64,000 nucleotides of DNA from an uncultured actinomycete (GCA_942491345.1 CALOAN010000042.1:54587-118586); one strand, 5' to 3'; counted from the first letter of the stretch, positions 14,690 to 39,428 are shown. Translations and numbers: made by a program. The notes: generated by a model from the letters alone, not told the origin.

Positions 14690-14706
14690 CGTCCGCCGAC
14701 CTGTCG

Positions 14707-16849: not shown

Positions 16850-16884
16850 CTCTGTCGCTCCTCGGTCGGTACGCTTCGGCCGTC

Positions 16885-19834: not shown

Positions 19835-19885
19835 TACGGCCGAAGGTTACCGGCACAGCGGTCACGTCGTTATCGTGCCGCGTGT

Positions 19886-21142: not shown

Positions 21143-22452
21143 CATCTCTACTCGAGAGGAGTCGCGAGATTCGGTCGACCGACGTGCGGCGATGGATGGT
21201 CGTCGCCCTCGTGTTCCTGCTGCCGCTCCACACCGTCTTCGTGCCGGCGGGGATCTCATGGAAGCCGTACCTGCTCATCCTCATCGCCCTCGTGGTGTGG
21301 GACTCCGCCGACGGCCTCCGCGACCGGACGTGGCCCTGGGACCTCCGAGCGTCCATTGCGGTCGGCGCGCTCCTCGTTGCGACGACCGTGGGGTGGTCCG
21401 GTCTTCCGGAAGCCCGTGGTGCCCGGCTGTGGCTTGCATTGCTCGCCGGGACACTCCTGCTACTCGTCGTCGAGCGGTCGATTCGCGAATTCAAACTCGA
21501 CCGGCCGGTCATGAGAGGCATCCTGTGGTCGGCGGTCGCCATGGCCGCGACCGCAGCCGTGCTCTCGTTCGTGATTGTCGGGACGTTCGGCGCCGACGTG
21601 ATCGAAACTATCGATGAGGTTCCGGGGATCGACCGCGTCGGAAAAGCGACGTACCTGACCGAGGGCTTCGTCGCGTTGACGAACTGGCATCAGGACCCGG
21701 GGTACGCCGCGGCATGGATGAACCTGTGGGCTGCACTCGTTGTGGCAGCGTGGGCCCGGGGGTGGGCGTTCAGCCGGTGGTGGCTGAACGCAGTGGTCGT
21801 CGGCGGTCTCGGTGCCGGCACGTTCATGACGATGAGCCGAACCGGATGGATCGGCTTCGTGGTCGCGGTGGGAGCGGCGACGCTCTTCACACACTTCCGC
21901 GACCGCATCCCGTGGCTGCACCTTCTGCGGCTGCTCGGCGTGGCGTTCGCCGCAAGTGTGTTCCTCGTTGCGTCATTCTGGGTGGCCGACCGACCCGGCA
22001 TCGGTACCGATCTTGCCGACGCCGTGGAATACCGGCTTTCCCAAGGTGCGTCCCTTGGTGCTCCGATCGAGGGCTTCGTCGAAGAAGGCATCGGAGCGCA
22101 GGACACAAGATCCGTCGTGTGGCCCCGATACGTCAACGCCTATCAGACCCACCCGATCTCCGGCATCGGTCTCGGCGTCGGCTGGGCGACGCCAAGCATG
22201 CAGGAACCTCACAACCTGGTTCTGCAGCTCCTCGGCGAGACCGGCCTGCTCGGCCTGTTCGCTTTTGCCGCGGTCGTGTACGTCATTTTGGCCCGGGGCG
22301 GAGGGACGATCGGGGCGATCGCACTGGTTGTCGTCGCCTCAACCGCAATGACCCAGACCGTTTTCTTCGAACCCACCTTATGGTTTTCCGGTGCTCTCTA
22401 TCTTGGAAAAGCCGGAGTCGATCGAACGAATCTCCATTCAAGCGGCGCCTGA
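21124..22452 (+). CDS. O-antigen ligase/polymerase family membrane protein (Wzy/WaaL-like)
   Basis: Multi-TM protein with the characteristic FMTMSRTGWIGFVVAV O-antigen-ligase-domain loop. Confidence 0.6.
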   Translation: MAGSSVTSLLERSREIRSTDVRRWMVVALVFLLPLHTVFVPAGISWKPYLLILIALVVWDSADGLRDRTWPWDLRASIAVGALLVATTVGWSGLPEARGARLWLALLAGTLLLLVVERSIREFKLDRPVMRGILWSAVAMAATAAVLSFVIVGTFGADVIETIDEVPGIDRVGKATYLTEGFVALTNWHQDPGYAAAWMNLWAALVVAAWARGWAFSRWWLNAVVVGGLGAGTFMTMSRTGWIGFVVAVGAATLFTHFRDRIPWLHLLRLLGVAFAASVFLVASFWVADRPGIGTDLADAVEYRLSQGASLGAPIEGFVEEGIGAQDTRSVVWPRYVNAYQTHPISGIGLGVGWATPSMQEPHNLVLQLLGETGLLGLFAFAAVVYVILARGGGTIGAIALVVVASTAMTQTVFFEPTLWFSGALYLGKAGVDRTNLHSSGA

Positions 22453-22472: not shown

Positions 22473-24218
22473 ATGAGGGGTCTTCGTCGCTGGACCGTGG
22501 TGCTCGCGTTCGTCGGGCTGATCGTGTCGGTCGCGCCGTCAGCCGGTGCCGGCGAGATCGTCATCGAAGACGAGGTCCACAGCGGCATCTACTCCTCTGA
22601 GTTCTTTTCCTCGAGCGATTTCGATGCACTTGGCAGCGCAGCAGGCGGCCGAGCGACGTTCGGCGGGACCTTCCACGACATCGCAGAGAACGATTCTGCG
22701 AGCGGCGGCTGGTCGAACACGCGGGAGCTGCTCGACGAGGTCTGGCGAGGGAGGGCGACGCCGTTCGCGAGTGTGATCGTGAACGCCTCGGCCTACGCAG
22801 TCGCAGCCGGCCAGTTCGATGCCAAGATCCACGAGTGGGCTTCACACGTCGAGCAGTACCTCAACAAGGGCGAAGGCCGCAGTCTCATCATCGCCCCGCT
22901 CCAGGAGGCGAACGGCACATGGATTCCCTACGGATGCGACCCAGGGAACTTCAAGGGTGCCTACCGCAAGTTCGTTGACATCTTCCGCAGCCGCGGACTT
23001 GACGAAACCAAGGTCCGCTGGGCGTTTGCGCCGAACGGGTGGACGTCACAAGGCTGCGGATCGCTGTCGGACTACTACCCGGGCGACGACTACGTCGACG
23101 TCCTGTCGTTCTCCGGATACAACTTCGGGACGTGTCTCTCGACCAAGTGGGAAAGCGTTGCCGAGGTCGTCGACTTCGCGATCAGTGAACTGACGGCCAT
23201 CAACTCGACCAAGCCGATCGTGATCTCACAGACGGCGGCGGGACGCTCCTGCGGTGGAGACCAGTCCCAGTGGGTGCGAGACCTCTTCGCACATCTCAAA
23301 GCGAAATCGAATGTGTTCGGATTCATCTGGTTCAACCTCAACAAGGAGACCGATTGGCGCGTCTGGACCGGTTCGTGGGTGTCTCCCGGCTGGCAGGACG
23401 GCACCAAGACCGCGAGCTACCAGTGGCCGCTCACCGACTGGTTCGCACGCGGCCCGCTTGTGATCGCTCCTCCGACGCCCCAGACCCCACCCTGTCCCAA
23501 CGGTTTGTGCGACTCGGTCGGACTGGTAGATGCGGGGGGTGAATGGCAGTTGTGGGACGGGCTAGGTTCCGGATCTGGCCTGGACGGGTTCTACTTCGGA
23601 AACCCCGGCGACGTTCCGTTCATGGGAGATTGGGACGGAGACGGAGTCGCCACACCGGGGCTCTATCGGCGCTCTGACGGGTTCGTGTACCTGAGGAACT
23701 CGAATACGCAGGGGGTTGCAGATACAACGTTCTACTTCGGGAATCCCGGAGACTGGCCGTTGGTCGGCGACTTCAACGGGGATGGGAAGGACACCGTTTC
23801 GATCTTCCGCGAATCCGAGGCACGTGTCTACGTGGTGAATCGTCTGGGTGTCAACGGCGGCGGACTGGGCGCGGCCGACTACAACTTCTACTTCGGGAAC
23901 CCGGGTGACGTCCCGTTTGTCGGCGACTTCGACGGCAACGGAATCGACTCCGTTGGGTTGTATCGCCAGTCTTCCGGGTTCGTGTACTTCAGAAACGCAC
24001 TGTCGACGGGTATCGCCCACCTGGAGTTCTTCTACGGCAATCCGGGCGACGTGATTCTGGCCGGTGATTGGGACGGCAATGGTGACGACACAGTGGCGGT
24101 CTTCCGGCCCTCGGACGGCCGTGTATATGTGAATCTGAAGAACGCACCAACGGCGGCCGACTACTACGTCTACGTGGGGTCCTATCCCAACGCCGTGACC
24201 TGGTCCCGAGGTCGCTAG
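22473..24218 (+). CDS. secreted GH26-like (clan GH-A) glycoside hydrolase fused to a C-terminal FG-GAP-like repeat propeller domain
   Basis: Signal peptide (MRGLRRWTVVLAFVGLIVSVAPSAGA); APLQEANGTW resembles the GH26 acid/base motif; 6-7 C-terminal repeats FYFGNPGDVPFMGDWDGDGVATPGLYRRSDGFVYLRNSNTQGVAD. Confidence 0.6.
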   Translation: MRGLRRWTVVLAFVGLIVSVAPSAGAGEIVIEDEVHSGIYSSEFFSSSDFDALGSAAGGRATFGGTFHDIAENDSASGGWSNTRELLDEVWRGRATPFASVIVNASAYAVAAGQFDAKIHEWASHVEQYLNKGEGRSLIIAPLQEANGTWIPYGCDPGNFKGAYRKFVDIFRSRGLDETKVRWAFAPNGWTSQGCGSLSDYYPGDDYVDVLSFSGYNFGTCLSTKWESVAEVVDFAISELTAINSTKPIVISQTAAGRSCGGDQSQWVRDLFAHLKAKSNVFGFIWFNLNKETDWRVWTGSWVSPGWQDGTKTASYQWPLTDWFARGPLVIAPPTPQTPPCPNGLCDSVGLVDAGGEWQLWDGLGSGSGLDGFYFGNPGDVPFMGDWDGDGVATPGLYRRSDGFVYLRNSNTQGVADTTFYFGNPGDWPLVGDFNGDGKDTVSIFRESEARVYVVNRLGVNGGGLGAADYNFYFGNPGDVPFVGDFDGNGIDSVGLYRQSSGFVYFRNALSTGIAHLEFFYGNPGDVILAGDWDGNGDDTVAVFRPSDGRVYVNLKNAPTAADYYVYVGSYPNAVTWSRGR

Positions 24219-24221
24219 GGC

Positions 24222-25775
24222 ATGGCGGCGCGCCAACTGCTGCTCCTCCCGGCGATGATTGTCGGGTTCGTCGTGGCTCTTGGGGTTGCACCGGCACTTG
24301 CCGGAGAGGTCACGGCCGAAGAGCAGCAGTTCATCTACGACCTCAACGAAGCCAGGCGCGACCCGGCTGCCTATGCCGCAACCCACCTCTCGGGCTCACT
24401 GCGGGATCTCATCGCGAGCTACCAGGCTCGCCCGCCGGTCGCCGTCGGCGACGTCATCAGTGATGCTGCTCAGCTTCGGACCGACGACATGGTGGCGTAT
24501 AGCTACTTCGCCCACTACAACCCAATCACCGGATTCGGCCCACCGCAAGCACTGGCGCAGGTGGACTACGACTGGACGAGTTGGGGTGAGAACATCGGCC
24601 GCGGCTATCAGACCCCGTCCTCGATGCTGATCGGCTTTCTCAGCTCGAACTCCGGGCATCGCGAATCGGTCATGGGTCAGGGATCGATCCCACAGACCTT
24701 CCGCGAGATCGGAGTCGGACATCACGCAACCAGCAACACGTGGACCGTCATCCTGGCCCGGCCGGGGAACACGGAACCGGCTCTCACGGGTGTGGTCTAC
24801 GACGACAAGAACAACAACAACCGGATGGACCTGGGTGAGGGCGCAGGCGGTGTCTCGGTGAGTGCCGGCTCTGCAACGGTTCAGACCAACCAGGGCGGAG
24901 GATGGTCGATACCCATAGGTCCGGGAACATGGGAAGTCACCGCATCGGGTGGGGGCCTCCCGAGCACCCTGCGAACCTCAGCAGTGATGGCCTCGACCAA
25001 CGTGTGGATCGAATTCGAGTCCGAGCCGCTCCCGGACCCGCGGCCCGCACCCTGCGCCGGAGCTACCTGTGATTCGGTCGGGCTGGTTGATGATGGAAGC
25101 CAGTGGCATCTGTGGGCCAGCCCGGAAGTAGGCGACGGCATGGACGCGTTCTTCTTCGGCAATCCCGGCGACGTTCCGTTCATGGGGGACTGGAACGGTG
25201 ACGGAGTCGCAACGCCTGGTCTCTATCGGCAATCGGACGGCTACGTCTACCTGAGGAACACCAACTCCCAGGGCAACGCCGACATCAAGTTCTACTTTGG
25301 GAACCCCGGCGACGTGCCGATCGTCGGTGACTTCAACGGCAACGGCCGAGACACGGTGTCGATCTACCGTCCGTCGAACCAGACGTTCTACATCATCAAC
25401 CAATTGGGGTCCAATGATGACGGCCTCGGCGCTGCCGACTACTCCTACCTGTTCGGGAATCCGGGTGACCTGCCGTTCGTCGGTGACTTCGACGGCAACG
25501 GAATTGACAGTGTCGGCCTGTATCGCCAGTCCACCGGTTTCGTCTACTTCCGGAACTCGCTGACGACGGGGATCGCAGAACTCGAGTTCTACTACGGCAA
25601 CCCGGGTGATGTGATTCTCGCAGGCGACTGGGATGGAGACGGGGACGACACGGTCGCGGTCTATCGACCGTCCGACGGCCGGGTGTACATAAACCTGTCG
25701 AATGCGCCAACAGTGGCCGACTACTACGTCTATGTTGGGACCTACCCCAACGCCGTCGCCTGGCAACGAAGCTAG
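24222..25775 (+). CDS. secreted CAP/SCP/PR1-like domain protein fused to a C-terminal FG-GAP-like repeat domain
   Basis: Signal peptide; GENIGRGYQ...SNSGHRESVM CAP motifs; same C-terminal repeats and CxxxCDSVGLVD linker. Confidence 0.6.
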   Translation: MAARQLLLLPAMIVGFVVALGVAPALAGEVTAEEQQFIYDLNEARRDPAAYAATHLSGSLRDLIASYQARPPVAVGDVISDAAQLRTDDMVAYSYFAHYNPITGFGPPQALAQVDYDWTSWGENIGRGYQTPSSMLIGFLSSNSGHRESVMGQGSIPQTFREIGVGHHATSNTWTVILARPGNTEPALTGVVYDDKNNNNRMDLGEGAGGVSVSAGSATVQTNQGGGWSIPIGPGTWEVTASGGGLPSTLRTSAVMASTNVWIEFESEPLPDPRPAPCAGATCDSVGLVDDGSQWHLWASPEVGDGMDAFFFGNPGDVPFMGDWNGDGVATPGLYRQSDGYVYLRNTNSQGNADIKFYFGNPGDVPIVGDFNGNGRDTVSIYRPSNQTFYIINQLGSNDDGLGAADYSYLFGNPGDLPFVGDFDGNGIDSVGLYRQSTGFVYFRNSLTTGIAELEFYYGNPGDVILAGDWDGDGDDTVAVYRPSDGRVYINLSNAPTVADYYVYVGTYPNAVAWQRS

Positions 25776-25794
25776 ATCGCAGAGAACACCGAAC

Positions 25795-27759
25795 ATGGAC
25801 GAGTCACCACCAAAGCAACGAGTCGCGTCCGCACTGCTCGTTGCAGTCACCTTCGCGGCAGTCTTGATCGCTATCCCGCACGGCGCCAGGGCCGACGAAA
25901 CCGAGCTCCCGATCGTGCCGGATTCCGGCATGCTGGCCGACGAGCCGTTTCTCGTCCAGCTCGATCCAAACTCGACGCGATACTCGGCTTCCTCAGATGG
26001 GGACTGGGTGATCCGCGATGCTCGCCCCGGTGAATCGATCCAAGCTGCCTATGAGCGCCTCGCCTCGACGCCGGGAGTGAAGGATGTCGCCTTCAATTAC
26101 CGCTATGCGGCCCACGGTGTGCCGAACGATCCCTTGTTCGCATCGCAGTGGAACCTCCAGCAGATCAACACACCAATCGCCTGGGACTTCGGCGACGGCA
26201 CCGGAACCGTCGTGGCGGTGCTCGACTCCGGGGTTGGTGTGGATGGACAGGACCTTGCGTGCCACGAGTTCGTGGATCCCTACAACGGGATCACGGGCGA
26301 GGAAGGTCTCGCCGCCGTGCTTGACGACAACGGGCATGGCACCCATGTCACAGGAACGATTGCCCAGTGCACCAACAACGGCATCGGCGCGGCCGGCGTC
26401 GCTCCGGGAGCTTCGATCATGCCCGTCAAAGTCATGGACAAAGACGCAATGGCCTCCACGCTGACGATATACCGGGGCATGGTCTGGGCGATAGAACACG
26501 ACGCGGATGTGATCAACCTCTCTCTCGGGCTGGACTGCACCGCTCCATGGCCGACGTGCTCGGACAACGTCATCGACTTTCTGGTGGAAGAAGCGCACGA
26601 AGCCGGCATCGTTGTTGTTGCATCGAGCGGCAACGACGGGAGCGCGTTCGTTTCCTCACCGGCGAACCATCCTCTGACGATCGCCGTCGGGGCTACAACG
26701 ATCGCCGACGTGGCTGCCGAGTACAGCGCACACGGAGACGCACTCGATGTGGTTGCGCCCGGCGGCTCGAGATACGCCGGCATTTGGCAAGAGACGTTCG
26801 ATGAATTCGGGGTGTGGGGCTACTACATGTGGAACGGAACGTCGATGTCCGCTCCGCACGTGACCGGGGCGGTGGCACTCATGCTTTCGGTGAACCCGAA
26901 CGCCTCGCCCGAGTATGTCCGCGACATGCTGACCGAGTCGGCAATCGACATCGAAGAGCCCGGGTGGGATGAGACCAGTGGCTACGGGCGTATCGACGCT
27001 GCTGCCGCCGTTCAAGCGATCCGCTTCGACCCGAGCGATCCGTGTCCGACGACTGAGGACTGCAGCGGCATCTTCACCGTGGGCCAATCGGGGGTGTGGT
27101 CCCTCATGCCCGATCTCTCGGAGCCTTCCATCGCGGATTTCTACTACGGCGTGCCGGGCGACATTGCGTTCTCGGGCGACTGGAACTGCGACGGCACGAG
27201 GACCCCGGGCCTCTATCGCCAGTCGGATGGGTTTGTGTATCTCCGCAACTCGAATACCCAGGGAATTGCGGACATCACGTTCTACTTCGGAAACCCCGGC
27301 GACATCCCGATCGCCGGCGATTTCAACGGCGATGGCTGCGACACCGTCTCCTTGTACCGCGCGACCGAAGGCCGCGTCTACGTGATCAACCGCCTCGGTG
27401 AGGACGGCGGGGGCCTAGGCGCAGCGGATCTCGACTACTACTTCGGAGACCCGGGTGACAAGCCGTTCGCCGGCGATTTCAACGGCGATGGTGTTGACAC
27501 GATCGGGCTCCACCGGGAGTACACCGGGCTCGTCTACTTCCGCAACTACCACGCGCAGGGCATTGCAGATTCCTCGTTCATCTACGGCGACCCGGACGAT
27601 CAGATCCTCGCCGGCGATTGGAACGGGGACGGGGTGGACACGGTCGCCGTATACCGCCCATCCGTCGGCATTCTGTACGTCAAGCTCAGCAACGCACAGG
27701 GTGTCGCCGACTACGAATACTCGATCGGGCCCTATTCTCAAGTGATACGGGCCGGGTAG
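25795..27759 (+). CDS. secreted subtilisin-like S8 serine protease fused to a C-terminal FG-GAP-like repeat domain
   Basis: Asp/His/Ser triad motifs (VLDSGVGVDG; HGTHVTGTIA; GTSMSAPHVTGAVALM) and C-terminal repeats. Confidence 0.75.
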   Translation: MDESPPKQRVASALLVAVTFAAVLIAIPHGARADETELPIVPDSGMLADEPFLVQLDPNSTRYSASSDGDWVIRDARPGESIQAAYERLASTPGVKDVAFNYRYAAHGVPNDPLFASQWNLQQINTPIAWDFGDGTGTVVAVLDSGVGVDGQDLACHEFVDPYNGITGEEGLAAVLDDNGHGTHVTGTIAQCTNNGIGAAGVAPGASIMPVKVMDKDAMASTLTIYRGMVWAIEHDADVINLSLGLDCTAPWPTCSDNVIDFLVEEAHEAGIVVVASSGNDGSAFVSSPANHPLTIAVGATTIADVAAEYSAHGDALDVVAPGGSRYAGIWQETFDEFGVWGYYMWNGTSMSAPHVTGAVALMLSVNPNASPEYVRDMLTESAIDIEEPGWDETSGYGRIDAAAAVQAIRFDPSDPCPTTEDCSGIFTVGQSGVWSLMPDLSEPSIADFYYGVPGDIAFSGDWNCDGTRTPGLYRQSDGFVYLRNSNTQGIADITFYFGNPGDIPIAGDFNGDGCDTVSLYRATEGRVYVINRLGEDGGGLGAADLDYYFGDPGDKPFAGDFNGDGVDTIGLHREYTGLVYFRNYHAQGIADSSFIYGDPDDQILAGDWNGDGVDTVAVYRPSVGILYVKLSNAQGVADYEYSIGPYSQVIRAG

Positions 27760-27822
27760 TTCGCGAACCGCCGGCCCTGTGACCAGCCCGACGAAACGTC
27801 GCCGACCCCTTTCACGGATCCG

Positions 27823-29235
27823 ATGATTCAAGATTCTCCATCCGCAGGCCGAAGACTTCCCATGGGGCCATTTCCCGTCGACCGCCCGCGCCGCCTGCTG
27901 CGCCTGACGGTGGCTGCGCTCGCCGTCGTCGTGGCGTTTGCCGCAATCCCCGCATGGGCCGACTACCCGATGCCGGCACAGCCCGATCCGCTTCCCGCCC
28001 CCGCCGAGGACGGCCTGTACCCGATGATCTTCCCCGTCCAGGGCGACAACTACTTCTCCGACACATGGGGCGCCTGCAGAAGCGGTTGCAGCCGCGGGCA
28101 CCTCGGTGTCGACATCCTCACGTACGGCGTCAAGGGAGTTCCGGTAGTCGCCGCCGCTGCCGGCACGATCGACTGGGTCAGCAGCACCTGCTGCGCCATC
28201 TCGATCAACCACGACGACGGCTGGAAGAGCTACTACATCCACCTCAACAACGACACGCCCGGGACCGACGACGGCCAAGGCTGGGGTATCGCCGACGGCC
28301 TCGAATCAGGCTCCCACGTCGAGGCGGGACAACTCATCGGATGGGTCGGCGACTCCGGCAACGCTGAAGGTGTCAGCCCGCATCTCCACTGGGAGTTGTG
28401 GGCCCCGGTTGATCTCGACGCCGACGACTGGCGCGACCGTCACCAGGCGATCAATCCAACGCCCCACGCTTCGGCGGCCGACGTGCCGCTCCCGGATCCG
28501 CGGCCGGCGCCGTGTGCAGACGGAGTGTGTGATTCGGTCGGTCTGATCGACGAGGGCGGCCTGTGGACGTTGTGGGACGGCCTGGAGGTCGGCGACGGCC
28601 TGGACGGCTTCTTCTTCGGGAATCCCGGCGACGTCCCGTTCATGGGGGACTGGGACGGTGACGGGGTCGCGACGCCAGGCCTCTATCGACAGTCCGATGG
28701 GTTCGTCTACGTACGCGACACGAACACCGAAGGAGTCGCCGATTCGGAGTTCTTCTTCGGGAATCCCGGAGACTGGCCGCTGGTCGGCGACTTCGACGGC
28801 GACGGCAAGGACTCGGTCTCGATCTTCCGCGAGTCCGAGGCGCGGGTGTATGTGATCAACCGGCTCGGCGAAGACGGGGGCGGGTTGGGCGCAGCGGACT
28901 ACGACTTCTACTTCGGGAATCCGGGAGATGTTCCGTTCGTCGGCGACTTCGACGGCGACGGGATCGACACCGTCGGGCTGTACCGCCAGTCGTCCGGGTT
29001 CGCCTACTTCCGGAACTCACTGACGACCGGCGTCGCCGATTTCGAGTTCTTCTACGGAGATCCCGGCGACGTGATCTTGGCTGGCGACTGGGACGGCGAC
29101 GGAGACGATACGGTGGCGGTATATCGGCCATCGGACGGCAAGGTCTACGTGAATCTGGAGAACGCGGCGACGGTCGCCGACTACTGGGTCTACGTCGGTT
29201 CCTACACGAACGCCGTCGCCTGGTCCCGCAGCTAA
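27823..29235 (+). CDS. secreted M23 (LytM-type) metallopeptidase fused to a C-terminal FG-GAP-like repeat domain
   Basis: GHLGVDIL...HLHWELW zinc-binding motifs; possible Tat-type RRLLRL signal; C-terminal repeats. Confidence 0.7.
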   Translation: MIQDSPSAGRRLPMGPFPVDRPRRLLRLTVAALAVVVAFAAIPAWADYPMPAQPDPLPAPAEDGLYPMIFPVQGDNYFSDTWGACRSGCSRGHLGVDILTYGVKGVPVVAAAAGTIDWVSSTCCAISINHDDGWKSYYIHLNNDTPGTDDGQGWGIADGLESGSHVEAGQLIGWVGDSGNAEGVSPHLHWELWAPVDLDADDWRDRHQAINPTPHASAADVPLPDPRPAPCADGVCDSVGLIDEGGLWTLWDGLEVGDGLDGFFFGNPGDVPFMGDWDGDGVATPGLYRQSDGFVYVRDTNTEGVADSEFFFGNPGDWPLVGDFDGDGKDSVSIFRESEARVYVINRLGEDGGGLGAADYDFYFGNPGDVPFVGDFDGDGIDTVGLYRQSSGFAYFRNSLTTGVADFEFFYGDPGDVILAGDWDGDGDDTVAVYRPSDGKVYVNLENAATVADYWVYVGSYTNAVAWSRS

Positions 29236-29470
29236 GGCGAACCCAGGGTTCTCCACCCCGTATGCGGCGCTGTCAGCCCGCGGAATGGATGGCGCTGCGA
29301 ACCCAGGGTTCTCCACCCCGTATGCGGCGCTGTCAGCCCGCGGAATGGGTGGCGCTGCGAACCCAGGGTTCTCCACCCCGTATGCGGCGCTGTCAGCCCG
29401 CGGAATGGGTGGCGCTGCGAACCCAGGGTTCTCCACCCCGTATGCGGCGCTGTCAGCCCGCGGAATCGGT
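29231..29470. repeat. 4 x 60-bp near-identical tandem direct repeats
   Basis: cgaacccagggttctccaccccgtatgcggcgctgtcagcccgcggaatgg[ag]tggcgctg repeated four times with no spacers. Confidence 0.9.
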
Positions 29471-29596
29471 GGCGCGCGCATCGTACGTCAAGAGGGTCAT
29501 ACGGTTCAGGTGTGTCACCCGCCGTGGTGGGCCCGGTGCCGAGGGCTTCGCCGACTCGGGGAGAGAAGGAGCACCGAAGGATGGCTCGCGCGGAGC

Positions 29597-32104: not shown

Positions 32105-32130
32105 TCGACGGACGTGTGGCCAAGGCCGGC

Positions 32131-33165
32131 CTATTGAACCGGCATCTCCCTGCCGCCACGGCGGCCGCGCGACGAGCGGCGGCGTCCGAGAAACGCCAGC
32201 TGGTCCCAGGTGTAGTTCCAATGGAGCGCACGGAGGACGTGACGGTCGGGGACGCGGCGAAGACGAGCGATCACGGCGCGCCGTTTTGCGATGACGCCGC
32301 GGCGCCTGCCGATCGATCGGTAGCTCCGCCTCTTGGCTGCCAGCATCGAGAACCCTCGTGACGCGCAGTACGTCCACATCATCAGCTCAGTCCACAACAA
32401 CAACGGAGAGATGAGCAGCCGGGTTGCCCATCTCGTGTTCGCCAGCAGCATCTCCCATCGATTGCGCTCGAGCAGATACAGCTTCTCCGGAGACATCGTC
32501 AGCGAGTAGTGATGCTCGACGGGGGGCGTCGGGACGTACGCGATTCGGTATCCCATCAGCCGCAGCGTCCACGAGAGCTCAACATCTTCGTGGTACAGGA
32601 AACCTCCGGCGTACCAGCCACCCATCGCGGCGAGAACGTCACGTCGGACCACGAAGGCGGTGCCTTGTATGCCGGACACCTCCTGAGGATTCGAGGCGAC
32701 CTCGGTTACACGATGGTGGAGCATCCGGTTGAAGCCGAGTCCCGTGATGTGAATCTCCTGCCCGGCGGCGTTCACCACGTCTGATCCGGCCATCGTCAGA
32801 GTCGGGCAGGTCGCGGCATGGTCAGGGTGAGCGTCGAGGTAGGCGATCTGAGGTGAGAGCCAGCCCGGGGAGGGAACACAGTCGGCGTTCATCACGGCTA
32901 CATACGAGGTCTCGATAGAGCCGAGCACGTCGTCGACGGCGCCGGCGTACCCCAGGTTGCTGGTGTTGTGCGCCGTACCGACGCGCGAATCAGTCGCCTC
33001 GAGATCGCTGAGAATTGATGCTGTGCCGTCGGTCGATGCGTTGTCGACGACGACGATTCGAGTAGCCGCCGGATCCGCAGCGAGGGCCGCAACACAGGTA
33101 GGCAGTGACTCGCGATCGTTGTAGCCCACCACAACCACCGTCACGTCGAGCATGCCGGAGTTCAT
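32131..33165 (-). CDS. GT2 glycosyltransferase
   Basis: VTVVVVGYNDRESLPTCVAAL...VVVDNASTDGT GT2-A motifs. Confidence 0.65.
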   Translation of the reverse strand: MNSGMLDVTVVVVGYNDRESLPTCVAALAADPAATRIVVVDNASTDGTASILSDLEATDSRVGTAHNTSNLGYAGAVDDVLGSIETSYVAVMNADCVPSPGWLSPQIAYLDAHPDHAATCPTLTMAGSDVVNAAGQEIHITGLGFNRMLHHRVTEVASNPQEVSGIQGTAFVVRRDVLAAMGGWYAGGFLYHEDVELSWTLRLMGYRIAYVPTPPVEHHYSLTMSPEKLYLLERNRWEMLLANTRWATRLLISPLLLWTELMMWTYCASRGFSMLAAKRRSYRSIGRRRGVIAKRRAVIARLRRVPDRHVLRALHWNYTWDQLAFLGRRRSSRGRRGGREMPVQ

Positions 33166-34370
33166 GACCTGGGCGAGGGCGGCGCGGGCCGGTCCCTGAA
33201 GAGGGTGAGGAACAGCGACGCTGAGACAAGCTGGAGCCCGAAGACGAAGCCGGTCGACGCGAACACCAGCTGCCGGGTCTCGGTGAACGCCGGTCCTCCC
33301 GCAACGAGCCAGCTGATGATGAGGATGGCAAGGAACACACCGGAGACCACGGCCAGGATGCCGCCGACGACGGCCATCGTGGTGCGCACGCCGGTTGATG
33401 TCGCTCGCTGGAGCCAGATCGTCGGTGTGAAGCCAAGACTCGCTCGATAGAGGGCGGCGGCGAGCCCGAACACAACAAGCTGGAAACCGGCCAGGATTCC
33501 AAGCGCAGCGACGATGAACGTGTGGATGCTCAAGCCGAGGTAGTCCGTGACGATCGGGCCCTGGGACAAGGCGAGTGCGCCGATGATCGAGACGACCAGG
33601 AGGATGAGTCCCGGCACGGCGAAGAAGACGAGCGGCCGGTAGAGCAACACCATGGTCAGGATGCGGCCGAGGATCCCCATCCCATCCGTGATCGGATCGA
33701 GCTTCTTCTCGCCAACCCGAGGGTGGTAGTCAGTCGGCAGCGTTGCCACCCTCAATTCGTTGGCTTGCGATTTGATGCCGATCTCGACCTCGATGTCGAA
33801 CCCGTCGGCTTCGGTGCCGAGGCTCTCGAACACCTCGCGTCTCGCTCCGTAGAGTCCGGACAGGTAGTCGCCGGCATCGAGACCGTGCAGCGACGTCATA
33901 GCCTTGCCGAGCAGGACATTGCCGAGCCGGTTGATCGCTGGTGTGTTCGACGAATCGATGTTGCGCTCGGCTCGCACGAAGTCGTTGTCTCCGAGGAGGT
34001 CGACCATGGCCGGGATCGTCGCCGCGGGGTAGGTAGCGTCGGCATCCATGACGATCACGATCTCGCCTGATGCGGCCGCAACCCCGGTCCGGATTGCAGC
34101 ACCTTTGCCGCGGTTGACGCTGTGGACCTCAACCGCACAGCCAAGTTGGCGTGCAGCATCGGCGGTGCCGTCGGTGCTGCCGTCATCGACCACGAGGATG
34201 TCGGCATCTGGGCCGAGGACCGATCGGATGTCGTCGACGACCACGGGGAGCGCCTCCTCCTCGTTGAAGGCAGGCAACACGATCGTGGTATGAGGTGGCA
34301 AAGGTTCTGCTCCGACCCGGTGGTCGATGTTGTCGGTCGTCGCGACAATACCCGTCGTTGGCCCGATTAC
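33162..34370 (-). CDS. GT2 polyprenyl-phosphate glycosyltransferase with a C-terminal 4-TM domain; start uncertain (overlaps downstream gene in ORF track)
   Basis: TTIVLPAFNEEEALPVVVDDIRSV...VVDDGSTDGT; hydrophobic C-terminus; the SpoIID gene stop at 34367 constrains the true start. Confidence 0.5.
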   Translation of the reverse strand, partial: VIGPTTGIVATTDNIDHRVGAEPLPPHTTIVLPAFNEEEALPVVVDDIRSVLGPDADILVVDDGSTDGTADAARQLGCAVEVHSVNRGKGAAIRTGVAAASGEIVIVMDADATYPAATIPAMVDLLGDNDFVRAERNIDSSNTPAINRLGNVLLGKAMTSLHGLDAGDYLSGLYGARREVFESLGTEADGFDIEVEIGIKSQANELRVATLPTDYHPRVGEKKLDPITDGMGILGRILTMVLLYRPLVFFAVPGLILLVVSIIGALALSQGPIVTDYLGLSIHTFIVAALGILAGFQLVVFGLAAALYRASLGFTPTIWLQRATSTGVRTTMAVVGGILAVVSGVFLAILIISWLVAGGPAFTETRQLVFASTGFVFGLQLVSASLFLTLFRDRPAPPSPRS

Positions 34371-36427
34371 TCGCCCCAGAAGCCGGTCGTCGGATTCATG
34401 AAGCCCTCGCCGAACTCGAAGACGATGTTTGCGGATGTCTGGGTGAAGGTGTCTCGGAGGTACCACGTGCCGGTTGACGGCCTGAAGAGGCCGATCGTGT
34501 CGGTGCCGTCGCCGTCCCAATCGCCGGCGATGATTCGGTCACCGGATGCAGCACCCGAGTAGAAGAACGATATGTCGGCAATCGGACGGTTGAGGTCGTT
34601 CATCAGGTAGACCATCCGGGTGGACGGCCGGTAGACCCCGACCGTGTCGGTGCCGTCGCCGTCCCAATCGCCGGCGATCGGCACGTCGCCCGGGTTGCCG
34701 AACGGGAAGTCGATGTCGGCAATTCCCTGAGTGTTGGTGTTGCGCAGGTAGAACCGGCCCTCGGATGACCGGTAGATGCCGACGGTGTCGACGCCGTTGC
34801 CGTTCCAGTCACCCGACACTGGAAGGTCGCGCGGGATGCCGTAGTAGATCTCGATGTCGGCGATGCCCTGGTTGTTGGTGTTTCGCAGGAAGAGATATCC
34901 ATTGCTCTCGCGATAGAGGCCCATGGTGTCGATGCCGTCGCCGTTCCAGTCACCTGCGTACGGCGTGTCCTTCGGGTTGCCGTAGTAGAAGCTGTCGACC
35001 GTCCCGTTCGAATGCCTGATGTGCCAGATACCGGTTCTTGGATCCTGCATGGCCACCTGATCGGCTTTGGGATTGTTCAGCGGGGGAGGACGGTTGATGG
35101 CAATCGCGAAGTACCACGAGCGGAGTCCGTATCGCGAGGTCACTTCACCGACGCTCTTCTCCACGTTGACGGAGCTGCCGCCGCTGGTGATCCCGCCGAA
35201 GCGGAAGCGGCTCGGGCTGCCTGAATCGTTGGTTGCGATCACGTCGACGGTTTCGACGTCGGCGAGGCCGAGCCACGATGCGAGGCTGGCGCGGGTGATG
35301 GTCTCGTTCCACGAGCGGAACGGATTGATCGATGCGAGCGACCAAGGGTCGGCAACCGAGATGAGATACGGGAATGCTCCGCCCCACTTGTCCTCGGAAG
35401 ACTCGGTAGCGCCGCCCGACGACGAGGAGTAGAACGCTCGGACGATGGTCGAGTCCGGTGCGGCAGGGTGGACGATCACCCGGCCGGTCGTGGAGACGGC
35501 CGCAGCGTCCCATGTCTGCCAAAGCGATCGTGCACCAAGCCATCCCGCAAAGACCTGATCGGCCGAGCTGTTCTTGATGTCGCAGAAGCAGGCGGCAGCA
35601 CGATGGTCCGTTCGAAGGTCGGCGGTGGCGGCGTACGACCGTGCGGCGATGGCCTGAGCCTTGAGCGTCTCGACGTTCCACGAGAACGGCACTTCGGCGA
35701 TACCCCGGGTGTAGGTGTCAAGCGGGAGTTGGACAGCTACGTCGAAGCCCGGCCAGAGTGGACAGGCCCCGGGACACACCGTGTCGGCAACGGTACGCGG
35801 ACCGCCGTTGCCCACCACGCTGCCGTTGTCGACGAAGAGCAGCGCCGTCCCCCACGCGAATGTGCAGTTGGTGGTCCGACATGCGTTGAGGGCGATCACG
35901 TACGGCGGGAGCGCTCCATCGGGAGCGAGTGGGACGGTGATGTCGCATGATCCGGATTCCCAGGCCGTGCCGTCGCTGAACGCCACCGTGCAGCCGCCGT
36001 TGGTCTGCGGGGCCGTATCAACCACGGTGAACGATGCGCCGGCGAAGAGTTCCTTCTGCTGCAACGTGGCGGCGGCGCCTCGTGACACAACGACGCCCGT
36101 GGCGGAGGTGCCCGGTCCGTTGCTGATCGAGACCGTCCGGGTCGTCTGGTCCGAATCGACACCAACGAAGATGTCGCCGTCGGTCGGTACGCCGTTGGTT
36201 CCGATCGTACCGAGCGTTGTGCCCTGGTAGTAGGTGCTCAAGATCTGCTGGTGCGTGGAGCCTTCCGCCGCCATGGCCTCGGCCCCGTATTGGCTCATGC
36301 CAACACCGTGGCCCCATCCGGCGCCGTCAAACGAAACGGTGTCATCTTCGGCCGCATCAGCCGGGACGGCGGTGAACACGACGAGGAACACGACGAACAC
36401 GGCAATGATCCGCCACACGCGAGTCAT
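34367..36427 (-). CDS. secreted SpoIID/LytB-domain protein fused to a C-terminal FG-GAP-like repeat domain
   Basis: Signal peptide MTRVWRIIAVFVVFLVVFTAVPADA; GHGVGMSQYGA, AQAIAARSYA and FYSSSSGGATE SpoIID motifs; C-terminal repeats SFYYGNPKDTPYAGDWNGDGIDTMGLYRESNGYLFLRNTNNQGIAD. Confidence 0.7.
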   Translation of the reverse strand: MTRVWRIIAVFVVFLVVFTAVPADAAEDDTVSFDGAGWGHGVGMSQYGAEAMAAEGSTHQQILSTYYQGTTLGTIGTNGVPTDGDIFVGVDSDQTTRTVSISNGPGTSATGVVVSRGAAATLQQKELFAGASFTVVDTAPQTNGGCTVAFSDGTAWESGSCDITVPLAPDGALPPYVIALNACRTTNCTFAWGTALLFVDNGSVVGNGGPRTVADTVCPGACPLWPGFDVAVQLPLDTYTRGIAEVPFSWNVETLKAQAIAARSYAATADLRTDHRAAACFCDIKNSSADQVFAGWLGARSLWQTWDAAAVSTTGRVIVHPAAPDSTIVRAFYSSSSGGATESSEDKWGGAFPYLISVADPWSLASINPFRSWNETITRASLASWLGLADVETVDVIATNDSGSPSRFRFGGITSGGSSVNVEKSVGEVTSRYGLRSWYFAIAINRPPPLNNPKADQVAMQDPRTGIWHIRHSNGTVDSFYYGNPKDTPYAGDWNGDGIDTMGLYRESNGYLFLRNTNNQGIADIEIYYGIPRDLPVSGDWNGNGVDTVGIYRSSEGRFYLRNTNTQGIADIDFPFGNPGDVPIAGDWDGDGTDTVGVYRPSTRMVYLMNDLNRPIADISFFYSGAASGDRIIAGDWDGDGTDTIGLFRPSTGTWYLRDTFTQTSANIVFEFGEGFMNPTTGFWGE

Positions 36428-36621
36428 CGAAAGGATGCCCATTGGATGTATATCGAACGATGTGGGCGACGCCTTGAGGAATGCCATCACCTTCATTGTG
36501 GTGCCAAAACGGCTGTATTCGACGCGGTGCAGAGATCCGCTCCAGTCACGATCTTCTCGTGCCGATACCGATTCGGGTAGTCTCGCTCGCTCTTGGCCCG
36601 GGGCAGCAGAACGGAGGACAT

Positions 36622-37863
36622 GTGAGTACTGGAACTCGGATCTTTGTGGTCCTCGCTCTCGTTGCCGGTCTGCTCGCCGCGATCGGCGGCACCGCGTCGG
36701 CCGTGTCGAACGACGCCGGCGTCGGACTGGTCGACCCAACAACCGGTGAGTGGTTCCTCCGCGATCCCGGAACCGGTGATACGACGCACTTCTACTTCGG
36801 CAACCCCGGTGACAAGCCGTTCACCGGCGACTGGGACTGCGATTCCGTCGACACTCCTGGTCTCTACCGCAGCTCGGACGGCTACGTCTATCTTCGGAAC
36901 TCGAACACGCAAGGGGTCGCCGATGTGCGCTACTACTTCGGAAACCCGGGCGATATCCCGATTGCCGGCGATTTCAACGGCGATGGCTGCGATACCGTCT
37001 CGATCTACCGGCCCTCGGAGCACCGCTTCTACATCATCAACACCCTCGGTGCCGACGGCGAGGGTCTTGGTGCCGCCGATATCGCATACACGTTCGGTGT
37101 ACCCGGTGACCAACCGATTGCCGGTGATTTCGATGGGAACGGCACGGACACGGTGGGTGTGTACCGCCCCTACACCAGCACTGTGTACCTCCAGAACTCG
37201 CACAAGGGTGGAGACGCCGACGTTTCGTTCACGTTTGGTGAGCGTTCTGACAAGGTGGTCATGGCTGCATGGTCCGGCGGCGTCGACACGGTTGGCGTCT
37301 ATCGGCCGTCAACCGGCACGTTCCACGTGCGCAACAGCAACTCACCCGGTGCGGGTGACGCGTCGTACGACTACGGCTACTCGAAATACGTGCCGATTGC
37401 GGGAACGTTCGGGGCATTGCCGGGAGGTCATGAGGCACCGCCGACGTCTCCGCCGTATCCAAACGTTGGTTCCGGGAAACGGATCATCTACTCGAACTCC
37501 CTGCACCAGGTGTGGCTCATCGACGAGAACGACGAACTCGTCGATACCTATCCGGTAACCGGACGCAAAGGCATCCCGCTTTTCGGGACCTACAAGGTTT
37601 TCTCGAAATCGGTCAACGCCTGGGCTCCGTACGGCGGCATCACGATGAAGCACATGGTGCGGTTCGTCCGGCCCGGGACGTTCGGCAACCAGTGGTCGTA
37701 CGGCTTCCATTCGATCCCGCGGTATTCGAACGGTCGGCCGATGCAGACCGAGGCGCAACTCGGGTCGTTCGGTTCGGGCGGATGCGTCCGGCAAGCCGAT
37801 CACAAGGCGCTCGCGCTCTACAACTGGGCGCCCATCGGCACCACGGTGCACGCAATTCCGTAA
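36622..37863 (+). CDS. secreted protein with an N-terminal FG-GAP-like repeat domain and a C-terminal YkuD-type L,D-transpeptidase domain
   Basis: AGGAGG-type RBS then GTG; signal peptide; 4-5 N-terminal repeats; C-terminal HSIP...GSFGSGGCVR matches the catalytic His...Cys region of L,D-transpeptidases. Confidence 0.7.
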   Translation: MSTGTRIFVVLALVAGLLAAIGGTASAVSNDAGVGLVDPTTGEWFLRDPGTGDTTHFYFGNPGDKPFTGDWDCDSVDTPGLYRSSDGYVYLRNSNTQGVADVRYYFGNPGDIPIAGDFNGDGCDTVSIYRPSEHRFYIINTLGADGEGLGAADIAYTFGVPGDQPIAGDFDGNGTDTVGVYRPYTSTVYLQNSHKGGDADVSFTFGERSDKVVMAAWSGGVDTVGVYRPSTGTFHVRNSNSPGAGDASYDYGYSKYVPIAGTFGALPGGHEAPPTSPPYPNVGSGKRIIYSNSLHQVWLIDENDELVDTYPVTGRKGIPLFGTYKVFSKSVNAWAPYGGITMKHMVRFVRPGTFGNQWSYGFHSIPRYSNGRPMQTEAQLGSFGSGGCVRQADHKALALYNWAPIGTTVHAIP

Positions 37864-37913
37864 CGAACGACGATCCTAGGGACTCAGATGACCAGCCAGT
37901 ATTCTTCGGCGCG

Positions 37914-39428
37914 ATGACGATCTCGACTTCCCCGCGTACCTACGTGCGAGTACTAGTCGGGTTCTTGTCGCTCATGGTCATCGGTGTGGTCTGGGCCGCG
38001 ACTGCTCAGGCCGACGACACCACCACGACTACGACGACGTCGACCACAACCACGACCACCGCGCCCCGTCCGCCCGAGAAGGCCGGTGTCGGCGTCGTCG
38101 ACTCCGAGTCGGGCCAGTGGTGGCTGCGCGACCCGGTCAGCGGCCAGTCAACACGGTTCTACTACGGCAACCCTGGTGATAGCCCGTTCACCGGCGACTG
38201 GAATTGCGACGGCGTCGATACTCCCGGCCTCTATCGCCAGTCAGACGGATACGTCTACCTGAGGAACTCGAACACCCAGGGTGTCGCCGATATCAAGTTC
38301 TTCTTCGGCAACCCGGGTGACATCCCGCTCGCCGGGGACTTCGACGGCGACGGGTGCGATTCCGTATCGGTATATCGCCCTTCGGAGAGCCGCTTCTTCG
38401 TGATGAATCGACTCGGCACCAGTGACGAAGGTCTGGGCGCGGCCGAATACTCGTTCATCTTCGGGGACCCCGGTGACAGGCCCTTCGTCGGCGATTTCGA
38501 CGACGACGGCATTGACACCATTGGCCTCCACCGTGAGAAGACGGGCCTGGTGTACTACCGGAACAGCAACGACCAGGGTCCGGCGGAACACGAGTTCCTC
38601 TTCGGCGACAAGGGCGACCGCATCGTCGCGGGCGATTGGACCGCCGATGGCATTTCCACTCCCGGCATCTATCGCGTAGCACAGGGGAAGTTCTTCCTGC
38701 GATACACCAACACACAGGGCGCCGCCGATCAGGAATTCCTCTACGGCGGATCACTCATGAACCCCGTCGCGGGCGTATTCGGGGATCTGCCAGGCGGCGA
38801 CGCACCTCCGCCCCAGGACAAACTCCTTGTGGCCGAGTTCACGACCTACCACCCGTGCTGCCAGAGCCGCGTGATCAACATCCACCGCATTGCCGATGCC
38901 GTCGACGGGGCCGTTGTGCAGCCGGGGGCGACCTTCTCCATCAACGCTCACGTTGGTCAGCGAACGGAGGCGAAGGGGTACGTTGCCGCAGGGGCGATCG
39001 TTGGTGGCGAGATCGTCTGCTGCGACCACCCGGCGAACATCGGGGGAGGCACGAGCCAGTTCGCCACCACGCTCTACAACGCGGTCTTCTGGGGCGGATA
39101 CGAGGATGTCTACCACAAGCCCCACAGCCTGTACTTCACCCGCTACCCGGTCGGGATCGAGGCGACGCTCGGGTATCCGGGGCCGGATGTCGTCTTCCGA
39201 AACGACACCCTGGCACCCGTGTACATCGACACGTCGCACACGTCCCGCAGCGTCACCGTGCGTCTCTACGGCACCAACGAGGGACGAGTGGTCACGGCGT
39301 ACACAACGGGGTCGGTCACGTCAAGAGACGGAGGGACCGTGAGAGTCACGCGTACGATCACTCACCCCAACGGAGCGGTCGAGACTCAGCGATGGGCGCA
39401 TCGCTACAACCCGATGCCGGAAGACTGA
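37914..39428 (+). CDS. secreted protein with a poly-Thr linker, an N-terminal FG-GAP-like repeat domain and a C-terminal VanW-like domain
   Basis: Signal peptide, DDTTTTTTTSTTTTTTAPRPP linker, 5 repeats; C-terminal GYVAAGAIVGGEIVCCDHPANIGGGTSQFATTLYNAVFWGGYEDV resembles VanW family. Confidence 0.65.
   Translation: MTISTSPRTYVRVLVGFLSLMVIGVVWAATAQADDTTTTTTTSTTTTTTAPRPPEKAGVGVVDSESGQWWLRDPVSGQSTRFYYGNPGDSPFTGDWNCDGVDTPGLYRQSDGYVYLRNSNTQGVADIKFFFGNPGDIPLAGDFDGDGCDSVSVYRPSESRFFVMNRLGTSDEGLGAAEYSFIFGDPGDRPFVGDFDDDGIDTIGLHREKTGLVYYRNSNDQGPAEHEFLFGDKGDRIVAGDWTADGISTPGIYRVAQGKFFLRYTNTQGAADQEFLYGGSLMNPVAGVFGDLPGGDAPPPQDKLLVAEFTTYHPCCQSRVINIHRIADAVDGAVVQPGATFSINAHVGQRTEAKGYVAAGAIVGGEIVCCDHPANIGGGTSQFATTLYNAVFWGGYEDVYHKPHSLYFTRYPVGIEATLGYPGPDVVFRNDTLAPVYIDTSHTSRSVTVRLYGTNEGRVVTAYTTGSVTSRDGGTVRVTRTITHPNGAVETQRWAHRYNPMPED

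Follow-up and report, generated by a model that had tools for sequence, protein, structure and literature searches.

A Five-Bladed VCBS-Type Propeller Module Shared by Eight Exported Proteins of an Uncultured Acidimicrobiia Bacterium

Why would eight neighboring genes, whose products carry eight different partner domains, all share one and the same repeat module? This question is raised by a stretch of DNA from an uncultured Acidimicrobiia bacterium that was analyzed over its full length of 64 kb (64,000 nucleotides; called the window hereafter, with coordinates given as window positions). Within it, a run of genes that we call G1 to G8 joins the module to hydrolases, peptidases, and other proteins with leader-like N termini, and this run lies beside genes for glycan synthesis. 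In this study we establish how the module is built and folded, to which superfamily it belongs, how large its family is, and that it is portable, syntenic, and homogenized within loci. By analogy with relatives of known function, we judge it moderately likely that this five-bladed VCBS propeller acts as a lectin that docks Sec-exported cargo noncovalently on the envelope glycan of the producing cell.

The Repeat Module and Its Predicted Fold

When the whole window was scanned in six frames for the core motif G[DT][WF]xxxG..D, matches were confined to exactly eight open reading frames (ORFs), all located between 22.4 and 39.4 kb. A hidden Markov model (HMM) built from the repeats of the eight proteins recovers four full repeats in each of them, at 70–92 bits per repeat (i-E 1e-23 to 4e-30), the sole degenerate copy being blade 4 of G7 (41 bits, i-E 4e-14). 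The full repeats are 46–52 amino acids long. In all eight proteins they are preceded by an N-terminal half repeat (VGLVDxxxGxWxL, corresponding to HMM positions 23–37) and followed by a C-terminal half repeat (HMM positions 2–15), which together make up a fixed unit of about 238 residues. An initial annotation of this DNA had counted 4–7 repeat copies per protein, a range that is replaced here by a constant arrangement of four full and two half repeats. Because the unit is constant in every protein, it must have been duplicated and moved whole. An LGxxGGGLGAAD insertion is present in the second repeat of seven of the eight window modules and is missing from that of G6.

AlphaFold2 was run on two alignments, one headed by the G4 module and the other by the G6 module, which is the most divergent of the eight. 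Both models are all-beta, with a mean predicted local distance difference test (pLDDT) score of 93.4 for G4 and 94.3 for G6, and a predicted template modeling (pTM) score of 0.89 in each case. The G6 model contains exactly 20 strands, to which the N-terminal half repeat contributes three and its C-terminal counterpart one. As modeled, the module is thus a beta-propeller of five blades with a 1+3 velcro closure. The four full repeats would form blades 1–4, each with a calcium-type loop between strands A and B, and the fifth blade would be assembled from the three strands of the N-terminal half repeat and the single strand of the C-terminal one. Because this closure would bring both termini together in one blade, the module could be tolerated at either end of a protein. 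Loops of the form D-x-[DN]-x-[DN]-G (DxDxDG type) occur in 27 of the 32 full blades of the window modules. A propeller of five to seven blades with calcium sites had been anticipated at the outset; the propeller and the DxDxDG-type loops agree with this forecast, and the blade number is fixed at five rather than spread over a range.

Conservation among 85 representatives of clusters at 50% identity is highest in blades 1 and 2. Preserved there are the stretch YRQSDGxVYLRNsNtqG, the LG...gGLGaA loop, and one Cys per loop in two adjacent Ca loops, and the blade-4 Ca loop is degenerate in the same set. Because conservation is strongest there, a functional site would probably be located on the blade 1–2 side. 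The Cys residues follow more than one pattern in the window. In G3, G5, G7, and G8, one Cys lies in the blade 1 Ca loop (GDW[DN]CDG) and one in blade 2 (GDGCD[TS]), which is also the family consensus, and the pairing of these two loops suggests a possible inter-blade disulfide. A Cys pair is found in the linker directly before the module (PCxxGxCDSVG) in G1, G2, and G4, and G6 has neither pattern.

Searches of the module against Pfam and NCBIfam returned no model at threshold. The only related Pfam model, PF13517 (FG-GAP_3), reaches 9.7–15.3 bits against a cutoff of 26.9 (E 0.03–1.8) and does not match the G7 module, and precomputed PF13517 matches exist on some homologs of about 58–78% module identity. 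Structure comparison was more informative. The top Foldseek match for the G4 and G6 models alike is UmbA4 (9oee_A; E ~1e-7, 18–22% identity), a Streptomyces coelicolor umbrella-toxin lectin complexed with teichuronic acid of S. griseus, and the next ranks are held by ITFG2, integrin alpha-V, the N-acetylglucosamine (GlcNAc) lectins PVL and AAL2, Bap1, TcB, and AUDH. Tachylectin-2 also belongs to the nearest relatives of solved structure. Searched against all PDB sequences, the module profile likewise gave a significant match only to UmbA4 (E 6.4e-4, via GDFNGDG-type blades); a PDB sequence search with a single module gave only BmdC (E 0.08), which was judged spurious. The models have four-stranded blades, and their neighbors are members of the VCBS supercluster, whose published membership (PMC8023676) is essentially the list of Foldseek relatives. 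The module is a divergent five-bladed member of the VCBS/FG-GAP superfamily, and it constitutes no new fold or superfamily. The likeness to FG-GAP/VCBS repeats proposed in the initial annotation is borne out by the models, the Foldseek neighbors, and the DxDxDG loops. Its further statement that the repeat length and the NSNTQG motif match no family that can be named is accurate insofar as no Pfam (FG-GAP and VCBS models included) or NCBIfam profile matches significantly; it goes too far in that the VCBS supercluster is known, "actinolectins" have already been noted within it, and some homologs pass PF13517.

These neighbors bear on function in two ways. A lectin role is favored because the nearest relatives with known ligands bind glycans, one of them an actinobacterial wall polymer (PMC13274773). 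The same list brings up the alternative of a protein–protein docking domain, by which exoproteins would be assembled on a common protein scaffold (for instance an S-layer, a membrane anchor, or a partner of cohesin type) without any glycan. Integrin alpha, ITFG2, and BBS propellers are interaction platforms, and propellers of this sort are among the Foldseek matches, although the best relatives with known ligands are the lectins UmbA4, tachylectin-2, PVL, and AAL2.

Partner Domains and the Extent of the Family

The eight partners differ from one another, and each module occupies a well-defined end of its protein. G1 (22473..24218, plus strand) starts with ATG and encodes a signal peptide (leader MRGLRRWTVVLAFVGLIVSVAPSAGA), a GH26-like TIM-barrel hydrolase (PF02156, E 1.3e-8), and a C-terminal module (23499–24215; full repeats at amino acids 373–564). 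The product of G2 (24222..25775, plus) combines a signal peptide, a CAP/YkwD-like domain, and a C-terminal module (25059–25772; repeats at amino acids 310–501); PF00188 is present in its close homologs, whereas the CAP domain of G2 itself is detected only below cutoff (TIGR02909 YkwD, E 1.9e-10). In G3 (25795..27759, plus) the signal peptide is followed by an S8 subtilase (PF00082, E 3.4e-53) and a C-terminal module (27049–27756; repeats at amino acids 480–672 of the long ORF), with ATG 25795 as the likely start. G4 (27823..29235, plus; start at 27823 or 27862) has a signal peptide, an M23 metallopeptidase (PF01551, E 1.3e-12), and a C-terminal module (28519–29232; repeats at amino acids 263–454).

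Next in order, G5 (29597..32104, plus; likely start GTG 29597) specifies a signal peptide, a right-handed beta-helix of NosD-like type (PF13229, E 2.3e-7; PF05048, E 3.8e-5), and a C-terminal module (31379–32098; repeats at amino acids 729–920 of the long ORF). G6 (34367..36427) lies on the minus strand and joins a signal peptide and a SpoIID/LytB domain (TIGR02669, E 1.1e-43; PF08486, E 1e-11) to the most divergent module lineage of the set, again at the C terminus (34370–35080; repeats at amino acids 585–773). The order is reversed in the last two proteins, both encoded on the plus strand. In G7 (36622..37863) the signal peptide is followed by the module (36700–37416; repeats at amino acids 104–294; fourth calcium loop degenerate), a Pro-rich linker, and a YkuD L,D-transpeptidase (PF03734, E 3.4e-11), and in G8 (37914..39428) by a Thr-rich linker, the module (38067–38789; repeats at amino acids 216–408), and a VanW domain (PF04294, E 9e-37).

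Except for CAP, each partner (GH26, S8, M23, Beta_helix/NosD, SpoIID/LytB, YkuD, and VanW) passes at least one curated Pfam or NCBIfam cutoff. The likely true starts of G3 (25795), G5 (29597), G6 (36427), G7 (36622), and G8 (37914) lie well inside the longest ORFs, and once the likely start codons are chosen, a basic/hydrophobic/AxA-type leader can be recognized by eye in all eight proteins. Junctions between cargo and module are Pro-rich or Thr-rich linkers. These results agree with the initial annotation on several counts, namely eight neighboring genes fused to eight different domains, signal peptides throughout, and a C-terminal module in six proteins, as against an N-terminal one that follows the signal peptide in the YkuD and VanW proteins. 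Its view that every partner acts on the envelope can be retained in part. About half of the eight are clear cell-wall enzymes (M23, SpoIID, YkuD, and VanW), whereas envelope action by the GH26, CAP, S8, and beta-helix domains is an interpretation of their sequences rather than an observation. Pfam searches of the eight proteins gave no match at E <= 0.01 for SLH, LysM, SH3b, CW_binding_1/2, PG_binding_1, or SPOR, and no trypsin domain.

The family extends far beyond this locus. A word-indexed search gave 3,326 matches. When 1.84 billion representatives were searched exhaustively with the profile, 31,458 clusters (50% identity) were matched at E <= 1e-3, and 8,197 passed the stricter limit of E <= 1e-30. 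Among contigs from one genome per species, 462 stretches were confirmed, and the locus analyses cover the best 78 loci from these (numbered with the prefix L), almost all of which come from Acidimicrobiia or Actinomycetota metagenome-assembled genomes (MAGs). Loci L001 and L041 are labeled as a Kiloniellales MAG, and L006, L009, L015, L021, L026, L038, and L054 as Acidobacteriota MAGs; such Acidimicrobiia-type clusters in MAGs of other phyla probably represent mis-binned contigs or taxonomy labels that need a check. Module-bearing ORFs number 147 in the 78 loci, as many as seven of them within 20 kb, and one MAG has 14 or more. Of the 147, 91 carry the module at the C terminus and 33 at the N terminus, 15 consist of the module alone, and eight have another arrangement, as befits the portable module that had been proposed from the window. 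Giant metagenomic proteins have up to nine matched stretches (P0121, 3432 aa; P0127, 3436 aa; P0143, 3101 aa; P0186, 3867 aa), so the propeller is also used in multi-copy arrays.

Two censuses of partner domains were made with Pfam. In the first, the 141 non-module parts from the best 78 loci yielded GSDH (12), FG-GAP_3 (12), S8 (11), M23 (10), M15_4 (10), YkuD (9), SpoIID (9), GH26 (9), PD40 (8), Beta_helix (6), Big_9 (6), PG_binding_1 (6), cadherin-like (5), CAP (3), LCP (3), and GH114 (1) domains. Since one protein may count under several families, M23, M15_4, YkuD, SpoIID, PG_binding_1, and LCP together account for at most 47 of the 141. Enzymes of peptidoglycan or wall polymers thus make up at least a quarter of the parts, and up to about one third if family overlaps are few. 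This share seems high for secreted proteins, a comparison for which no baseline was measured, though the association is not exclusive. The second census covers the 85 high-scoring representatives of the metagenome-wide profile search. Their partners include PD40/DPPIV_N, trypsin, S8, Calx-beta, PKD, NHL, and LRR domains and a PnrA-like solute-binding protein, and the range of 56 Pfam families rules out a module specific to wall enzymes. Fusion to wall-active domains, as originally claimed, therefore holds for about a quarter to one third of the partners in related genomes and is not a restriction on the family more widely; similarly, the proposed "wall-remodeling toolkit" fits the window locus and not the family, whose partners are very diverse. 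Partner diversity indicates a general exoprotein module instead of a tag specific to wall remodeling, and by analogy the module looks like a general lectin-type tag for envelope retention.

The cargoes can also be read in other ways. One is that the module is an offensive targeting lectin that binds the surface glycopolymers of other microbes and delivers M23, S8, GH26, and beta-helix enzymes to competitors or prey, much like UmbA in umbrella toxins or the receptor-binding propellers of phages. The closest solved relative, UmbA4, was bound to teichuronic acid of the target Streptomyces (PMC13274773), M23, S8, and trypsin cargoes are plausible weapons, and a very large and diversified family of 31,458 clusters would suit such a role. 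However, YkuD, SpoIID, VanW, and M15_4 domains, LCP ligases, and the solute-binding protein act on or for the producer, and module genes are conserved beside the glycan-synthesis genes of the cell itself. Pfam and NCBIfam scans of part of the window ORFs showed no polymorphic-toxin or immunity domain, although no search was aimed at UmbB or UmbC. Furthermore, the catalytic motifs TAAHC and GDSGG are intact in metagenomic proteins that join trypsin to the module, whereas the trypsin-like domain of UmbA lacks the catalytic triad (PMC11062931), and an UmbA-like reading of these proteins is thereby ruled out. On balance, an offensive function is unlikely.

Another way to read the cargoes is to suppose that nothing is retained on the envelope at all, and that the module serves either as a carbohydrate-binding module for substrates or environmental glycans or as a Ca-dependent folding and stability domain. 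Partners such as GH26, GH114, GSDH, and beta-helix domains may indeed act on external polysaccharides, and DxDxDG loops can serve extracellular Ca-dependent folding. Substrate binding is difficult to reconcile with the presence of the same module on enzymes with unrelated substrates, including peptidases and a transpeptidase, and on a solute-binding protein, and the strong blade-specific loop conservation among the 85 representatives and the synteny with glycan genes exceed what a stability tag would need. We consider this explanation quite unlikely. The very broad cargo range is also compatible with the protein docking domain introduced above.

Linkage to Glycan Synthesis and Likeness of Modules Within Loci

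The run of module genes is interrupted only by two genes for GT2 glycosyltransferases on the minus strand (together 32131–34520) and is preceded by further glycan genes, which agrees with the location first assigned to it. The first of the pair (32131..33165; PF00535, E 3e-23) has a position beside the SpoIID-module gene that is conserved in other MAGs, with synteny in loci L003, L005, L006, L010, L016, L026, L029, L042, and L054. The second (33162..34520; PF00535, E 2.5e-26) has a C-terminal membrane region resembling that of polyprenyl-phosphate glycosyltransferases; homologs of 46–59% identity hold the same position in L003, L006, L010, and L029, and others were detected in L037 and L042. 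The upstream block (15746..22452) contains a WecB UDP-GlcNAc 2-epimerase gene (15746–16849, minus; TIGR00236, 293 bits against a cutoff of 210), two GT2 genes (16885–18126, plus; 18845–19834, minus), an ORF for a flippase-like protein with multiple transmembrane segments (19826–21142, plus), and a Wzy_C polymerase/ligase-like gene (21124–22452, plus), the GT2 and Wzy_C assignments being based on PF13641, PF00535, and PF04932 matches. Homologs of these genes recur beside module genes in L023 (as a block), L026, L008, L007, L003, L005, and L016.

Synteny was examined by tblastn of the loci with the catalytic parts and glycan genes of the window as queries. At least 15 loci, from no fewer than 12 MAGs, show the window-type arrangement, and catalytic-domain identities in these syntenic loci are mostly about 30–60%, rising to 76–82% for the short YkuD domain. 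In the conserved order, the upstream GT2, Wzy, flippase, and WecB genes are followed by the GH26-module, in some cases the CAP-module, the M23-module, the S8-module, the module-YkuD, and the module-VanW genes, and then by two GT2 genes and the SpoIID-module gene on the opposite strand. All nine loci with a homolog of the window SpoIID domain have homologs of one or both window GT2 genes, and a GT2 homolog adjoins the SpoIID gene in seven of seven mapped loci. The link to glycan synthesis that had been noticed in a single genome is thus conserved in many MAGs, and such linkage of the enzyme set supports a functional connection of some kind.

The sugar-nucleotide genes at 9595–16849 offer some hints regarding the glycan itself. 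They encode a GFO/IDH/MocA oxidoreductase (similar to UDP-GlcNAc 3-dehydrogenase, below cutoff), two DegT aminotransferases, a 4,6-dehydratase/epimerase, and WecB. N-acetylmannosamine (ManNAc) is implied by WecB, and the oxidoreductase and DegT enzymes, whose matches fall below curated cutoffs, hint at an amino- or diamino-sugar. Taken together, these genes suggest, with no assignment at the equivalog level, a polymer that may contain ManNAc and an amino- or diamino-sugar and may be akin to teichuronic acids.

Modules on different enzymes of one locus tend to be alike. For the GH26, M23, and S8 modules, mean identity is 71% between different enzymes of the same locus and 64% between the same enzyme in different loci. 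Within the window, the G1, G2, and G4 modules are 74–82% identical to each other and at most 74% identical to the modules of orthologous enzymes elsewhere. The G6 module, with 44–49% identity to its window paralogs and 67–71% to SpoIID orthologs, is by these values an old, separate lineage. Extreme cases are found in L016 (98%, S8 versus GH26), L005 (93% and 87%), and L006 (88%, SpoIID versus S8). Adjacent GH26 and S8 genes at 2487–7513 of L016 and at 6951–12642 of L005 have modules that are 98% and 93% identical on unrelated catalytic domains, and these pairs reflect either active gene conversion or repeat collapse during MAG assembly. Recent gene conversion within the window was ruled out, since the module DNA is only 60–78% identical.

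More generally, gene conversion between tandem repeats or collapse in MAG assembly could contribute to homogenization, and gene conversion alone could suffice. Homogenized modules on unrelated enzymes are nevertheless what would be expected if all copies must fit one lineage-specific ligand. The pattern fits coevolution with a single protein partner equally well, as protein docking would have it, yet the syntenic loci showed no conserved candidate for such a partner, and their conserved neighbors are genes for glycosyltransferases, Wzy, a flippase-like protein, and WecB. We therefore assign a low probability to a docking domain for proteins.

The reading that we favor remains a lectin for the producer's own envelope. 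Such a propeller would dock its cargo either on peptidoglycan strands or on the ManNAc/amino-sugar secondary polymer of the co-conserved WecB, GT2, Wzy, and flippase genes, and for the Acidimicrobiia lineage it would take the place that SLH, LysM, CWB2, or choline-binding repeats have elsewhere. That the module binds a glycan, that it depends on calcium, and which ligand it has are matters of inference here. Retention on the cell's own envelope is favored because several cargoes (L,D-transpeptidase, SpoIID, VanW, M15_4, and LCP) act on the producer's own wall, and docking on an envelope glycan because genes of the enzyme set are linked to those for WecB, GT2, Wzy, and the flippase.

Several points weigh against this interpretation. 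The partners of the 85 representatives, spread over their 56 families, include few wall enzymes and only two SpoIID domains. Because the window modules fall below the PF13517 threshold, superfamily membership is assigned by fold, motif, and weak profile matches. The nearest solved homolog, UmbA4, recognizes the polymer of a foreign cell and not that of its producer, and propellers of the superfamily (those of integrins, ITFG2, and BBS proteins) also mediate protein–protein contacts. The invariant Arg and Asp of each blade could be purely structural. Finally, homologs of the window glycan genes are found in only 10 of the 41 module loci of at least 12 kb, and the other module genes are dispersed.

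A bolder version of the favored reading can be put forward only tentatively, since we think it more doubtful than probable. The propeller would then be the lineage-wide noncovalent surface anchor of a large clade of uncultured Acidimicrobiia and a structurally new class of wall-binding module, recognizing the ManNAc/amino-sugar polymer made by the WecB, GT2, Wzy, and flippase proteins and kept matched to it by gene conversion among paralogs. Under this version, the locus would encode a self-contained system of a polymer plus a wall-remodeling toolkit docked on it.

Soil, freshwater, and marine samples are rich in Acidimicrobiia, most of which are uncultured and whose envelope biology is essentially uncharted. 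If the module is a wall-glycan lectin, it would explain how the class displays its exoproteome, and the propeller would join the short list of modules that anchor proteins to Gram-positive walls. Tens of thousands of "hypothetical" metagenomic proteins (the 31,458 clusters at 50% identity) would gain an annotation at the level of function, and lectin probes specific for the wall polymer would become available. Apart from this condition, the homogenized module on unrelated enzymes is a natural example, and a clean one, of a targeting domain that evolves in concert. Even if the module is merely a generic interaction domain, annotation of a large, unnamed VCBS-type five-bladed family is still useful.

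Some features of the region lie outside this argument. A gene for a DUF3048 secreted protein or lipoprotein (39740–40876) directly follows the cluster, an amidase gene is also downstream, and the gene for the lipid II flippase MurJ (48301–49914, minus) lies 9 kb downstream beside ABC-2 transporter genes. Long Thr/Ser-rich linkers follow the signal peptides of both G8 (37980–38070) and the DUF3048 protein (39830–39950), for example DDTTTTTTTSTTTTTTAP. The Pfam "New_glue" matches to them are spurious, and the linkers could be O-glycosylated linkers of surface proteins. Two tandem repeats occupy intergenic DNA. The first, at 29237–29475 (60 bp x 4.0 copies, 98% matches), is nearly perfect, takes up most of the space separating the stop codon of G4 from the likely start of G5 at 29597, and adds spurious length to the longest G5 ORF. 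It matches nothing in Rfam, and as an RNA it is predicted to fold no better than shuffled sequence (z -1.2). The second, at 39497–39610 (27 bp x 4.2 copies, 95% matches), separates the DUF3048 gene from the end of G8. An Rfam scan of the whole window found nothing.

Comparison with Known Propellers and Wall-Binding Modules

The module shares with other VCBS/FG-GAP repeats (Pfam PF13517 and PF01839) an FG at the end of strand D, which is followed here by an NPGDxP turn and strand A and then by the DxDxDG loop. It differs from integrin alpha and PVL in having five blades rather than seven, from the canonical motif in the NPGDxP turn inserted between FG and GD and in the replacement of GAP by G-x-[YF]-R, and from the superfamily at large in its blade-specific NSNTQG and LGxxGGGLGAAD loops and in the subthreshold Pfam scores of the window copies.

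The UmbA lectins are likewise secreted actinobacterial propellers of this superfamily, with GDFNGDG-type blades and conserved Ca loops. They bind wall teichuronic acid via canonical inter-blade pockets, and because they comprise 5BP, 6BP, and 7BP families, five-bladed versions exist (PMC13274773). UmbA4 itself is six-bladed and joined to a trypsin-like domain without catalytic activity, within a toxin particle directed against other species. The module, in contrast, has five blades, is carried by housekeeping-type wall enzymes and many other exoproteins, and is only marginally similar to UmbA in sequence.

Tachylectin-2 (1tl2), a lectin for GlcNAc and N-acetylgalactosamine, is five-bladed with blades of similar size, and its repeats of about 47 amino acids are similar in length to those of the module. 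It differs in being a stand-alone eukaryotic immune lectin with 8% identity, and no PDB sequence match to 1tl2 was obtained with a single module or with the module profile. Tachylectin-2 has been placed in the VCBS supercluster, and the Asp-rich A–B loop that is absent from tachylectin-like propellers (PMC8023676) is present in those 27 of 32 blades here. The VCBS core is linked to the tachylectins by the "VCBS actinolectins" of Pereira and Lupas (2021), which are uncharacterized, restricted to actinobacteria, and provided with a signal peptide, and which occur alone or after a TIM barrel (PMC8023676). By this published description only, they resemble G1 (a GH26 TIM barrel plus the module), the module-only ORFs, the leaders, and the origin of nearly all of the loci from Acidimicrobiia or Actinomycetota MAGs; the module family differs in also having many other architectures.

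Functional parallels may be drawn with the noncovalent wall-binding modules of Gram-positive exoproteins, such as SLH, LysM, SH3b, CW_binding_1/2, GW, and PG_binding_1. These too are portable to either end of a protein, occur in many paralogs per genome, are enriched on peptidoglycan enzymes, and are genetically linked to synthesis of a secondary polymer. SLH domains are linked to the pyruvylated secondary cell wall polymer (SCWP) and CWB2 to PSII synthesis. The SLH–SCWP association is documented in the literature (PMC6081394). Literature searches found, among the papers covered, none that characterizes the present module. It differs from all of these modules in being a propeller of 238 amino acids rather than a small repeat or three-helix module; the eight proteins give no sequence match to any of these families, and wall binding by the propeller is a prediction.

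Overall, this comparison separates what is already known from what is new. The fold, the superfamily, the existence of propeller lectins for wall glycopolymers in actinobacteria, and the use of portable wall-binding modules on exoenzymes are all known. New are a very large, unnamed, and uncharacterized family of five-bladed VCBS-type propellers, by which the architecture of the exoproteome in uncultured Acidimicrobiia is dominated, the conserved coupling of a set of module-bearing enzymes to a glycan locus, and the homogenization of modules within loci.

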